Of a stretch of DNA of 52,024 bases, positions 16,864-37,423 are shown piece by piece. Each line of letters begins with the position of its first letter. The first letter of the stretch is position 1. Source of the stretch: Squatina squatina (Eukaryota); assembly GCA_031763465.1 (NCBI GenBank), contig JARFOE010000100.1, positions 435,948 through 487,971 on the forward strand, written 5' to 3'. The translations under genes were made by a program, and so were the position numbers. The notes below the pieces were generated by a model that worked only from the letters and a program-made list of their open reading frames with translations, did no database searches and was not told where the DNA came from.

Positions 16864-16918
16864 CCCCAATGGAAGTGCTGTTCTCATTCGATGTGGGTAA
16901 TGGTCCATCTGAGGTTAC
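16864..16918 (+). CDS. Copy A CASPR/CNTNAP5-like gene, 5' part of the laminin-G3 exon ([18 protein letters not shown]), truncated by an N-gap
   Basis: TTTTACAG acceptor (AG 16862-16863), phase 1. FSFDVGNGP is the CASPR LamG3 motif. Homologous to the start of the - strand exon at 33328. Confidence 0.9.
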
Positions 16919-17018
16919 NNNNNNNNNNNNNNNNNNNNNNNNNNNNNNNNNNNNNNNNNNNNNNNNNNNNNNNNNNNNNNNNNNNNNNNNNNNNNNNNNN
17001 NNNNNNNNNNNNNNNNNN

Positions 17019-17215
17019 GTCGCTGCAATTAAACGGGGTGACCCTTGACCTTGAGGAAAGGGCGAAAATGACCCCGGGGGTCAAACCAGGATGCCCAGGA
17101 CACTGCAGCAGTTATGGCAACCTGTGTCACAACGGGGGGAGATGCATCGAGAAATATAGCGGCTATTCCTGCGACTGTGGCCACTCTGCTTATGACGGAC
17201 CGTTCTGTAAGAAAG
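17019..17215 (+). CDS. Copy A CASPR/CNTNAP5-like gene, 3' part of the LamG3-end/EGF2 exon ([16 protein letters not shown]...[38 protein letters not shown])
   Basis: EGF cysteine pattern and AAG|GTAAG donor (GT 17216-17217). 58 of 65 aa identical to the - strand exon at 30020-30259 (hand count). 5' end lost in the gap. Confidence 0.93.
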
Positions 17216-17689
17216 GTAAGATGGAGCACTCTGGTAGCGCATGTGTTTAATTAGAGCAGGACATTGGATTCCATCAATGGTATCTTGCTAATACACAATG
17301 TAATTTAATGTTATTGAATGGAGCAATGTAATAGCTGTTTGTAAAAGTGTTTTTAATGGATGTGATAATTTTTCACAAGGGCACCATTACCTTGTAAGGC
17401 AAATCAGATGGTTAATTGAACAAGGCAAATACTTCACTGAAAATAATTTGCTTGCAGATCATTGCTACTTATTACTCTCACAGTAAAGTCAGTTTAATCA
17501 GTTTCAAGATCGCAAGCTATGTTTGTGTTCACTACATACAACTTGGGAGATGCCTCAGAAGTAGGCAAATATCTTACAAAAGGCGGAAAGAAGACGGGGC
17601 TGCGATCACATCTGGAATTAGTATATCGGAAGCCACTAGTGAGCTTATAGCATCCCCGACGCTCCCCAACTCAACTAGCCCTTTTCCAA

Positions 17690-18270
17690 TTTGTTATTAT
17701 TCATTCTTGGGATGTGAGCATCACCACCAAGCCCAGTGTTTATTGCCCATCCCAAATTGCCCTTCAGAAGGTGGTGGTGAACTGCCTTCTTGAACTGCTG
17801 CAGTCCATTTGGTAAAGGTACTGCCGCAGTGTTATTAGGCAGGGAGTTCTAGGATTTTGATCCAGCGACGATGAAGGAACGGCAGTATATTTCCAAGTTG
17901 TGGCCTGGAGGGAAACTTGGAGCTGATGGTGCTCTCATGCGTCTACTGCCCTTGTCCATCTAGGTGGTAGAGGTCGTGGGTTTGGCAGCTGCTGTCGGAG
18001 GAGCCTTGGAGAATTGCTGCTGTGCATCCTATAGGGGGTAAACACTGCAGCCATGTTCGGTGGTGGAGGGAGTGAATGTTTAAGATGGTAGATGGGGGAG
18101 CCGATCAAGCGGACTGCTTTTTACTGGATGTTGTCATGTGTCTTGAGTGTTGGTAGAACTGCACCCATACAGGCAAGTGCAGTAAATTGCATCACACTCC
18201 TGACTTGTGACTTGCAGGTGGTGGATTCAGGAGGTGAGCCACTCGCTGTGGAATACACAGCCTCTGAACC
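17690..18270 (-). mobile_element. Non-LTR retrotransposon 3' portion in an intron of copy A
   Basis: Longest copy of the family also seen at 420-640 and 11565-11675. The - strand has degenerate LINE C-terminal coding (SFIVAGSKS.NSLPN). Confidence 0.7.
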
Positions 18271-18967
18271 ACTCAAGTCGCCTCTAGGTGTATATAATTA
18301 AAATTATATACACCAGCTGTATATTTAATGTTGCTGAAATTGAAGCAGAGTCTTTAATGGTATTGCTGGTTGAAATCAGGACTACTTGTGGGAGTATTTA
18401 ACTTATCATAACAGAACCTTGTACATTGATTAGATGCAAGATGGCCATGTTCCCAAATGAATCTGCCATTGTCGCTGGCTGACTGTGCTGTATTCCTGAT
18501 TTGACGGTGTCTCCTGTGAGGAACTGCCATTCATTTCCATGGGTGGCAGTAATGCAGACTCACCTCTCGGTACTTATTGGTGTTTGAGACAATGTGGAGT
18601 AGAGTTTCCCACAAGGTTTTCCCGAACTCCCACTTTACCTTCAGTGGAAAACCTGGAGGAACGAAGCGGAGGTGGATAACCGTTTTTAGCCCTTTCTCCC
18701 AAAGTCCCGCTGACCTCCCACAGGAAGTTCCGCGCCGAGACTTTAGCATAAAATGACGTCCAATATCAAAGAAGAGCAGGGGAGTCCCTCAACCAATGGA
18801 CTCTTCAGCCAAGTTTGTGTTAGCTTGTTCCCCTTGATATCACTGCTATCTCTGGCTCAGAAGGTGTNNNNNNNNNNNNNNNNNNNNNNNNNNNNNNNNN
18901 NNNNNNNNNNNNNNNNNNNNNNNNNNNNNNNNNNNNNNNNNNNNNNNNNNNNNNNNNNNNNNNNNNN

Positions 18968-34212: not shown

Positions 34213-34405
34213 CAAAAGTAAAATACTGCTGATGCTGGACATCTGAAATAAAAACAGAACATTCTGGAAATACTGAGCAGGCCAGGCAGCATCTGCGAAC
34301 TCAGAGATATGATGAAAGGTCATCGGTCTGAAACGTTAACTCTGTTTCTCTCTCCGCAGAGGCTACCCGACTTGCTGAGTGTTGCCAGTATTTTCTCCTT
34401 TTATT
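34213..34405. mobile_element. Two head-to-head fragments of the Penelope-like terminal repeat forming an imperfect inverted repeat
   Basis: CTGGAAATACTGAGCAGGCCAGGCAGCATCTGCG (about 34264-34297) versus CGCAGAGGCTACCCGACTTGCTGAGTGTTGCCAG (about 34355-34388), with a decayed hammerhead core between them. Confidence 0.65.
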
Positions 34406-36645
34406 TAATATTTATACCCAAGGGTTTATGCATCGCAGGTTCTTTGAAATATGCTGCATTTGTAATATAACAATTTTTACCTCCACAGTACTCACCTAAT
34501 GCATAGCCATTGTTAACATTTTATCTTCAAATCAGAGAATAATGAAAAACTCACACACATTAGATGTAAAATGAAGGCAATTCATGTTAATCTATAAAGA
34601 AATAAGAGAAGAAAATTGGGTTATGCAGATATGATCACACTAATTCTACAAACACGGCAGGGTGCACTTCCCATGTTTGGAGTTTGTTTATACTTTTTTC
34701 CAATGAACTACCTAATTAAGGTCATCCCTCACCACATGGTAACCTTAGTCCCAAGAATGTGAAAATCATCCCAATTCAATTTTATGGTATTCCTGACAAT
34801 GATTAATGATCCCAACAACTGACAAGATCATCTGTCACCAAACAAAAGTGAACCTTTGTCAAATTTCTTTTATTAATTTGAAAGGGGCCTGTGGAGAGAC
34901 ACATCATTGCCTGTCAGTGCAGACTGGATGGTGCAAGCAGGGGGAATCAGATAAACTCCTTTCGTGGCACAAACCTGGATAATGCTCTCATCTGGTACAT
35001 GCGAAGGTTAATTAATGTCTGTTCAATTTAGAGTATTACCATATACTCACACACACGGGGTAGACATGCAAAAATCACTAATAGGATCCAAAGTGCAAAC
35101 TACTACATCACTAACCTATAGGGACAGCTTCTTAAATAATTTTAAAGCTCTCAAGTGAATGGAAATTAACTAACTTATGATATACGTTCCAAGGAGGGAA
35201 AAACAGATTAAGAGAACTTAACTTTTCTCTTCTAAAATGGGTATTTTGTAGGGCTGGTCCATATAGTTACTTTGAAGGGTATATTTGGCAAACTATTTTT
35301 GTCAACCTTTTTTTTACATGTATTAAAGGAGAACATTACTGTGGGAACAATGCTTTCAATTCAACTATCCTTCTTTTTAAATAGGCCAATTTAAAGTTGT
35401 TTTAAACTCACTGACCTGCTCGAAGAAAACATCGCTTGATTCCCCTCCCTTGCACTTATGAAGAACTAACACTTTAAGCCAGGTGGTAGCCAGAGAACTA
35501 TTCTGTTGATCTCAGCCAGCAGCTCAAGATGCTAAAAGGTTATTGGTCCTCACTGATTCAATAGAGCTGTTGATTGACTAAGGATACAACTGATACTAGC
35601 TTGGCTTAGTGGTAGAGCTCTTCTCTCTCATGATGTGTGATGGGTGAACGGGACTTCGTGCAAGTTAGGACACGGGCAGCCGAGTTTCGGATGAGCTTAA
35701 GTTTATACAGCGTGCACGGGTGGAGGCTGGCCAGGAAAAGACCCTTCAGAAAAATTAACCGGTCTTTCAGATAACTATAGATCTACCGTGTATCTCCATA
35801 ATTTTCATTGTTTATTATTATATTATTTGTATGAGTATGCAGTGAATTGGCTCCAAGAATAACGTGTTGTATAGGAACATTGTAAAGTTAATGGGAGCTT
35901 CACAACCAAGGGTAAATAAACCCTTTATCTAGTCATTTCCTTAAGCAAAATGTTTCGAATATTGGCTGAATCAATCAGGGCTCGAGCAAAGTTCCCATTA
36001 GCAGGCTGGAAATTGCACAGAGCGTGTTATAGTCTGATTATTGGATCAGTTTATGAGTTGTTCAGATAGCAGAAAGACCCAGGAGCTCATTAGCTCAAGT
36101 GACACAAATCAAACATGCTGTGCATCTTCTAGCACCTTGTATGAGATGAGGAAATTGGGTCCTGTTAGCGAGGATTATGCTTTAATCTCTTGATTCATTG
36201 GATTCAAATTGAAATGGAAATTTGAGAATTTTCATCTTTTCAGATTTAATCTGTGTGAACCACATTTCAGGACTGACAATCCTTCTTTGTTCAATTAACA
36301 GTTCAGGCAATGTTTCATCTGTCTTTTCAACGTACAAGTACCTGAATGGAATACTCTTTGACACTGTCTCATTTCACACTTTTACCAATGCCTTCAGATT
36401 GCACTGATTGGAAAACTGCAGTTGAACTGAGTTGTGAAGTCATCAAGTGGATGTAGCATCAAGTGCCAGCAAGTAAGAAGAGACCATCTTAAAGAGGTTG
36501 CCTCAGACCCCTTGGGATTTCCAGTGGCTATAGTATAGTAGAACANNNNNNNNNNNNNNNNNNNNNNNNNNNNNNNNNNNNNNNNNNNNNNNNNNNNNNN
36601 NNNNNNNNNNNNNNNNNNNNNNNNNNNNNNNNNNNNNNNNNNNNN

Positions 36646-36950
36646 CAGGGTGGACACCGAGAGGCTGTTTCCCCCTGGCTGGGGAGTCCAGACCAGAGGT
36701 CGTAGTCTCAGGATAAGGGGTCGGCCATTTAGGACTGAGATGAGGAGGAATTTCTTCACTCAGAAGGTGGTGAATCTTTGGAATTCTCTATCCCAGAGGG
36801 TTGCGGAAGCTCAGTCATTGAGCATATTCAAGATAGACATTGATACATTTTTGGATATTAAGGAAACCAAGGGATATGGGGATCGGGCGGGACAGTGGAG
36901 TTGAGGTCAAAGATCAGCCATATGGCCTACTCATGTTCCTAATTCTTATG
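36646..36950 (+). mobile_element. CR1 LINE 3' end
   Basis: RLFP...TRGRSLRIRGRPFRTEMRRNFFTQKVVNLWNSLSQRVAEAQSLSIFK...KGYGDRAGQWS* followed by an AATTCTTATG tail. Confidence 0.9.
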
Positions 36951-37266
36951 GTCCCGGGTAGCCTGTGATCTCCACCCACAATCCCCTTGACCTGGGGAAG
37001 GAGGGAAGCAGAAGTTTTGCCCATTGCTCCTTCTTCTAAATTTTGCTGGCCTTCCTAAATGGGACAGAATCCCAGTCAAACCAGGTTCCACTACAGTTTC
37101 CTGTGCCCTGTCGGGTGATCCACCCTTGGCCCCATCGGAAGATCGGGTCCTAAGTTTGAAATGCTAACATCTGCATTGAACACACATGACTTGAACAATG
37201 GGAACAGGCTCTGAAATATTACTGTAATAAAGCTGTTAAGACGCACGGTTCAAAATGTCACAGTAC

Positions 37267-37423
37267 CATTCATCTCTGTCAGCATCGCAGTTACAGTGGT
37301 AGTTGGTATCCAAGCAGCTCTCCTCCAATCCGCAGGCACATTTCTGAACGCCAGGCGATGAACCTCCCCAGTAAGTTTGCTTTTCATTGGTCCTCCCAAT
37401 CCACCAGGTGAACGGTGTTCCAT
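37267..37423 (-). CDS. CNTNAP5: Copy B CNTNAP5-like fibrinogen-like-region exon ([53 protein letters not shown]); the ORF track shows it in the wrong frame
   Basis: TTTCTTTCAG acceptor (37425-37424), TG|GTACTG donor. 157 nt, phase 1/2. [11 protein letters not shown] and CNCDAD.DEW match recalled CNTNAP5. Confidence 0.95.

Follow-up and report, generated by a model that had tools for sequence, protein, structure and literature searches.

How can two genes be saturated with synonymous differences in upstream exons and still be closely alike around and beyond their stop codons? The question is raised by a 52,024-base window from a draft genome of Squatina squatina (G000:C100:435948-487971; the assembly comprises 1.5 Gb in 1.15 million contigs), the closest protein matches of which are found in sharks and rays. 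Two of a trio of CNTNAP5-like neuronal adhesion genes have their 3′ halves in the window, A on the plus strand and B on the minus strand, with the third, C, also on the minus strand, farther along the scaffold (A> <B <C). The three genes likely arose by local duplication before the split between sharks and rays, and repeated gene conversion has likely preserved their similarity around the stop codon.

A preliminary description had reported three exon pairs on opposite strands (16864+ and 33328−, 17019-17215+ and 30020-30259−, 21755-21951+ and 28007-28203−), and all were found at these positions; self-BLAST of the window returned E values of 3e-49 and 4e-124 for the A–B matches. A recount of the terminal exons again gave 36 differences in 197 nucleotides, and shifting the register by 1 to 3 bases raised this figure to 140–151. 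All reading frames are open, as claimed, and wherever a splice site can be seen it reads AG or GT. Comparison of the coding changes between the copies, which had been proposed as a check, gave a proportion of synonymous differences (pS) of 0.64 and of nonsynonymous differences (pN) of 0.085 over 146 codons. In the two upstream exons, encoding LamG3 and EGF2, pS is 0.84 and 0.74 (saturated) against a pN of 0.05–0.14. The exons of all three paralogs are under purifying selection.

The divergence of A and B falls steeply toward the 3′ end. In the last exon pS is 0.55 over the first 44 codons and 0.28 over the last 20, where pN is 0. The likeness extends for about 240 bases past the stop codon into the proximal 3′ untranslated region (UTR), where positions 21952-22189 (plus strand, gene A) and 27764-28006 (minus strand, gene B) are identical at 205 of 233 ungapped columns and differ at 28 (88% identity). 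Fisher tests on the gradient gave p values of 4e-20 and 0.003. With 88% identity in the UTR against 24% at upstream synonymous sites, this local tract stands far above its neutral flank. Part of the synonymous divergence may be inflated by the higher GC content at third codon positions in A, which is 0.70 versus 0.50 in B for the last exon (21757-21948 and 28010-28201) and 0.62 versus 0.51 for the EGF2 exon. The UTR similarity and the signs of conversion were absent from the preliminary description, as were the LamG4 exon of A (20193-20326) and a B exon at 47036-47137, the latter beyond the range it covered.

A search of public sequencing runs for read-depth data identified none from this species (best share of words 0.17). 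Contigs from seven public runs of six related organisms were aligned to the window, and a core around the stop codon (21922-22006 in A, 27952-28036 in B) was examined in four of these runs (X1, X10, X14 and X18). Three UTR types are found in the relatives. One tracks A to 22380, the A type being conserved at least that far; the second tracks B, including its 9-base insert, resembles A no further than 22189 and is conserved to about 27300; the third departs at 22048. Orthologous UTRs in the relatives differ from the window by about 5–8%, so the UTR is not frozen, while the orthologous last exon of B differs by 2–5% and B-type UTR contigs differ from A by about 11%. The A–B likeness in the UTR thus appears to be old and shared, which fits an early conversion combined with constraint. 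Around the stop codon itself the paralogs collapse, in three of the four runs (X1, X10 and X14; X18 shows little collapse), into common contigs of 80–85 bases with summed depth. In run X1 a single 85-base contig covering 27952-28036 has a depth of 39.3, near the sum of the three UTR types (11.3+14.9+15.6). At least two variants in this region are shared across copies, each within a single lineage. A 1-base UTR insertion occurs in both covering contigs of X14 and, among the differences listed, in no other run, and a synonymous change at 28058 occurs in all six covering contigs of X10 and is absent from X1, X14, X18 and both window copies.

Protein identity within and between species was compared for 10 species, 22 protein windows and three gene pairs, making 66 tests. 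The best of these was the A–C comparison in the last exon, with a within-species excess of +0.050 (p=0.0002; Bonferroni 0.013); in the 21 ectodomain windows the same pair shows no within-species excess (all p>0.05). For A and B over the whole ectodomain the excess is +0.003 (p=0.008), a very small effect. In a tree of the tails, A and C intermix while B remains a clade, and the A and C tails of Heterodontus group together (97/89).

We propose that local duplication with one inversion gave rise to three paralogs before sharks and rays separated, and that, ahead of the divergence of the species sampled, an old conversion event would have spread about 240 UTR bases between A and B. In each lineage, short later conversions would then keep the last 20 or so codons and about 55 UTR bases nearly identical, with the A–C pair the clearest case and A–B a weaker one. 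Both A–B and A–C are inverted pairs and could pair within a chromosome, with the 3′ ends of A and B facing each other. As a result, the three genes would present different ectodomains on a nearly identical band-4.1-binding tail.

Several observations weigh against this proposal. In the 85-base core around the stop codon, five bases separate the window copies of A and B, so there has been no very recent A–B conversion in Squatina squatina, and the last exchange between the two genes in this species is not recent. The A–B excess of +0.011 in the last exon falls short of significance (p=0.11), and on the 65 residues of that exon the approximately unbiased (AU) test rejects monophyly of neither A (p 0.28) nor C (p 0.27). 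The lineage-specific shared variants number at least two among the 40 of 190 and 40 of 104 substitutions listed, and contrary cases are possible. With about 5% change between orthologs, the proximal UTR is itself conserved, so selection accounts for part of the likeness. The last exon at 21755 is equally like A and C, and the last exon of C was not found in the draft assembly; the exon at 21755 may therefore belong to C and be misplaced, or be a collapsed A/C copy. Since the exon pieces each lie on a separate gap-bounded contig, the orientation of A and B and the distance of about 6 kb between them derive from the scaffolder. Finally, a B–C excess at residues 270–329 (+0.015, p=0.001) misses correction (Bonferroni 0.066), although a second conversion tract between this direct pair is possible.

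Some of these points would also be expected if the same ancient trio owed the likeness of its tails and UTRs to strong purifying selection alone, acting on an ultraconserved 3′ UTR element and a constrained binding tail, without gene conversion. The core of window B lies only 0–2 bases from the shared contigs of relatives, the change of about 5% in the proximal UTR between orthologs is less than the roughly 13% over one intron-plus-exon contig, and the outcomes of the AU and A–B protein tests just described speak for this view as well. Selection alone does not account, however, for the insertion in X14 and the synonymous change in X10 that are found in all covering contigs, nor for an A–C within-species excess that is present in the tail and missing from the ectodomain. 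Moreover, we estimate that a UTR with a rate of change about half the synonymous one would not still be 88% identical where synonymous sites are saturated. We therefore consider selection without conversion to be unlikely.

The age of the cluster was addressed with FastTree on 78 proteins and with IQ-TREE on 26 (ectodomain only, LG+G4, no mixture model), using a sequence set without chimaera and without mammalian CNTNAP3. A, B and C form separate clades, with 100/100 support each, and each clade includes one or more rays, so the duplications appear to predate the shark/ray split. The clade uniting A, B and C is supported at 86/91 on a short stem, and the best tree gives it bony CNTNAP5+CNTNAP4 as sister group; neither a grouping of the trio with CNTNAP5 (AU p 0.19) nor one with CNTNAP4 (p 0.08) is rejected, and the trio may be co-orthologous to both bony genes. 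Any one shark paralog as the CNTNAP4 ortholog was considered and rejected, as A+CNTNAP4, B+CNTNAP4 and C+CNTNAP4 each gave p<1e-4. The preliminary description had derived the pair from an inverted duplication. That the two genes are paralogs holds, but the scaffold carries a third one, and support for B+C is no higher than 71/55, so A and B need not stem from a single inverted duplication. The best 120 hits included no Callorhinchus (chimaera) protein. Two proteins that bear the name CNTNAP5, from a sturgeon and a reedfish (P0021, P0064), group with CNTNAP4 (100/99); they are likely misnamed and were treated as CNTNAP4 in the trees.

It is also conceivable that A, B and C are a retained ancestral cluster from which bony CNTNAP5 and CNTNAP3/4, and perhaps glycophorin C, arose separately, with later homogenisation hiding the orthology. 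The modest support and short stem of the trio would suit this history, as would the lack of a separate shark CNTNAP4-like protein among the best 120 hits. The tail of glycophorin C is homologous, and in one bird and two turtles the gene and CNTNAP5 are on the same contig; in a fish it lies beside cntnap5b (10.64898/2026.01.14.699493). Against such a history stand the rejection of each shark paralog as a partner of CNTNAP4 and the tail tree, which places glycophorin C with CNTNAP2 (89/84), outside the shark cluster, and we regard it as improbable.

The homology of the glycophorin C tail to the CNTNAP last exon, seen in proteins P0265, P0269, P0272, P0275 and P0417, appears to begin at the same point in both. 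The last exons of A and B align without gaps with the tails of CNTNAP5 and glycophorin C. Over 66 columns, a comparison of low power, the glycophorin C tail is 57% identical to CNTNAP2, 55% to A and 56% to C. Glycophorin C as a truncated member of the cluster was likewise considered and set aside, as the equally low-power tail tree groups it with CNTNAP2 and not with A, B or C, and no link is claimed. No shark glycophorin C was found in the draft (other hits look like CADM tails) or among the 20 of 150 representatives whose names were read, which is weak evidence of absence. The sole shark or ray entry seen under the name "glycophorin-C-like" is a manta-ray fragment of the gene A tail (P0265), for which the NCBI name is likely a misnomer.

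Gene C was located by a search of the same genome together with 400 kb of flanking sequence. It occupies G000:C100:540479-572391 on the minus strand, about 75 kb beyond the window genes, in nine exon pieces. Exon pieces on the scaffold were typed by their mean identity to A, B and C orthologs in a set of 49 proteins from sharks and rays: pieces on the plus strand are A, those at C100:463957-493766 are B and those at C100:540479-572391 are C. The best match is the paralog expected from place and strand for 15 of the 18 pieces, two tie (21755 between A and C; C100:565353 between B and C), and one in the C region scores slightly higher to A (0.91 versus 0.88, with intron bases in the translation). 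The preliminary description had suggested a search for the same pair in related species. A, B and C all lie on one chromosome (the same chromosome length in RefSeq) in 11 of the 21 shark and ray species sampled, a comparison that covered chromosome length and accession order. Accession numbers suggest an A-B-C order, with B between A and C in six of the 11 species and not clearly so in the other five. In the remaining 10 of the 21 the retrieved protein sets are incomplete.

A further reading accepts the genes as real but takes their tail-to-tail layout, or the short distance between them, to be an artefact of scaffolding that departs from the true arrangement. The assembly invites this view, with its 1.15 million contigs and heavy N content. 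The window contains 42 runs of N, three of them between the facing 3′ ends of A and B, and in the region around it N makes up 202,878 of 452,024 bases, 154 of the runs there being exactly 100 long. One such run, at 16919-17018, stands in for no fewer than 207 bases of exon and an intron, so it is a true assembly gap. The nine exon pieces in the window are each enclosed by gaps, one to a piece of sequence, and no gap-free piece joins exons of both genes; the RefSeq order, moreover, has B central in only six of 11 species. On the other side, 18 separately assembled exon pieces stand in protein order, with one strand per gene, which argues that the scaffolder probably had real long-range information, from this animal or from the chromosome or genome of a relative. 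The presence of all three genes on one chromosome in 11 species also speaks against an artefact, and we think it very improbable that the layout is one.

The preliminary description had concluded that these are two real genes and not alleles or an uncollapsed haplotype, a conclusion that the saturated synonymous sites with low pN and the 100/100 clades of A and B with their respective orthologs bear out. It had further stated that the flanking introns do not align beyond a few bases near the acceptor. Local alignment indeed scored no better than 14 and 19 for the flanks upstream of 16864/33328 and downstream of 17215/30020; for the last exon of B only two bases of the upstream flank are visible. 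Uncollapsed haplotypes or a recent segmental duplication, which a fragmented draft and a high 3′-end identity might bring to mind, were rejected and have next to no chance of being correct, as alleles are impossible at a pS of 0.84 and 0.74, the introns cannot be aligned, and both copies have separate orthologs in sharks and rays.

The exons located on the scaffold number four for A and six for B. On the plus strand, the first of the gene A pieces is the 5′ piece of the LamG3 exon (16864..16918; acceptor AG visible, the remainder lost in the gap at 16919-17018; identity to A, B and C orthologs 96%, 75% and 81%), followed by the 3′ piece of the LamG3-end/EGF2 exon (17019..17215; donor GT visible; EGF E 1.4e-6; 97%, 85% and 90%). 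The LamG4 exon (20193..20326; AG and GT present; 85%, 61% and 72%) and the last coding exon follow, the latter (21755..21951) encoding the transmembrane helix and a cytoplasmic tail ending EYFI-stop, with 81% identity to A, 82% to C and 71% to B. Gene B, on the minus strand, has its last coding exon, likewise with the transmembrane helix and EYFI-stop tail, at 28007..28203 (B 89%, A 72%, C 73%). Its LamG3-end/EGF2 exon (30020..30259; B 95%) and LamG3 exon (33110..33328; Laminin_G_2 E 2e-11; B 86%) are complete with AG and GT, sites that also bound an exon of the fibrinogen-like region (37267..37423; B 92%, A 90%, C 83%), and a discoidin-domain exon cut by a gap lies at 47036..47137 (B 96%). 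Window exons match LamG and EGF in Pfam, and the full-length orthologs P0003, P0148 and P0139 have F5/8, four LamG and two EGF domains; the fibrinogen-like region gives only weak COLFI matches, in two of these three. Pfam also gives a weak Syndecan-family match for the tails of P0142 and P0265 and none for the two window tails. By these domains, the single transmembrane helix and the short tail, A and B appear to be of CNTNAP/Caspr architecture, for which the ectodomain order is discoidin-LamG-LamG-EGF-fibrinogen-LamG-EGF-LamG. The name band-4.1 motif for the CNTNAP tail is taken from PMC10084454. On family knowledge from the same source, each gene is predicted to make a type I Caspr receptor that would partner contactins and carry a band-4.1-binding tail.

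A search of the Protein Data Bank (PDB) sequences with the tail as query gave no significant match, and an Rfam scan of the window at gathering thresholds gave no hits. The 5′ exons of gene A were found neither in window positions 1-16800 nor in the 200 kb upstream. Positions 1-16800 contain interspersed repeats, and several A-like exons are present on unplaced contigs, for example C305168, C399393 and C722417. In gene C, the LamG1-end exon (L034:7382-7570, C100:565353-565541) is 90% identical to both B and C orthologs; a DNA search for a second copy of this exon was swamped by a repeat. Across species, B and C are 96–97% identical over residues 270–329. CA/TG-rich simple repeats lie at 22859-23273, between the two 3′ ends, and at 37847-38101, and fragments resembling long interspersed nuclear elements at about 25779-26783 and at 3838-4105.

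The cluster is flanked on one side by PTPN4-like exons and on the other by ADCY5-, SEMA5B-, Wnt- and ERG/FLI/FEV-type Ets exons. Within L007-L025 and L037-L046 (C100:236-426 kb and 588-688 kb) these are Wnt (L014), ERG/FLI/FEV-type Ets (L015), ADCY5-like (L020), SEMA5B-like (L024) and PTPN4-like (L043, L044), together with a kelch protein (L046). Two further pieces, L025 and L037, contain frames that have no Pfam hit and are probably SLC49A4- and TMEM177-like. Such neighbours, among them those like PTPN4, ADCY5 and SEMA5B, probably mark the CNTNAP5 chromosome region in birds and mammals. A synteny search of the genome for Translin gave a match on another scaffold, and one for CLASP gave nothing. 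A CNTNAP2-like gene is found on another scaffold (G000:C192:7243746-7376210).

Literature searches, with most subscription papers outside their reach, found no published account of the cluster or its conversion, and the main texts of the whale shark (PMC8455134) and catshark (10.1101/2024.05.23.595469) papers contain no occurrence of the gene terms searched. The genes are already automatically annotated in public databases, and the conversion described here is a new case of a known process, not a new mechanism. If the proposed history is correct, cartilaginous fishes expanded the CNTNAP3/4/5 branch in place, independently of bony vertebrates, and kept all three genes. Naming and orthology are affected, as RefSeq calls all three shark genes "contactin-associated protein-like 5". 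There is also a practical warning, in that these 3′ ends can become merged in short-read assemblies and in RNA counts.

Compared with CNTNAP5, the genes of this cluster share the ectodomain of discoidin, four LamG, two EGF and fibrinogen-like regions (in full-length orthologs), the single transmembrane helix and the short tail ending EYFI; the difference is that sharks and rays have three full-length genes in a cluster, not one. Rodents offer another lineage-specific expansion of the same gene, with three Cntnap5 paralogs in mouse and four in rat according to PMC10084454. The shark and ray expansion, in contrast, predates the shark/ray split and has saturated synonymous sites. The copies in rodents are of young age. 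Gene conversion confined to a local tract between long-established neighbouring paralogs is a known general process, and the cluster resembles it in that ancient paralogs, some of them inverted, share a nearly identical stretch with sharp limits. Particular to this cluster is that the tract comprises the end of the cytoplasmic tail and the proximal 3′ UTR, involves three genes and is no longer letter-perfect in this species; it would add a long-lived, multi-species example of conversion confined to these parts. Clustered protocadherins likewise display variable ectodomains on a common cytoplasmic tail, their constant exons being shared by splicing. Each CNTNAP5-like gene, however, carries a last exon of its own, and with A in the opposite orientation splicing cannot share it. 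A bolder and rather unlikely reading is that the three genes have formed a "variable head, constant tail" set of receptors since before the shark/ray split, in which selection-favoured conversion keeps the end of the tail and an adjoining regulatory 3′ UTR element identical. Read-through between the facing ends of A and B could, in addition, produce double-stranded RNA from the shared UTR. If this reading is right, DNA copying would be doing here what clustered protocadherins do by splicing.

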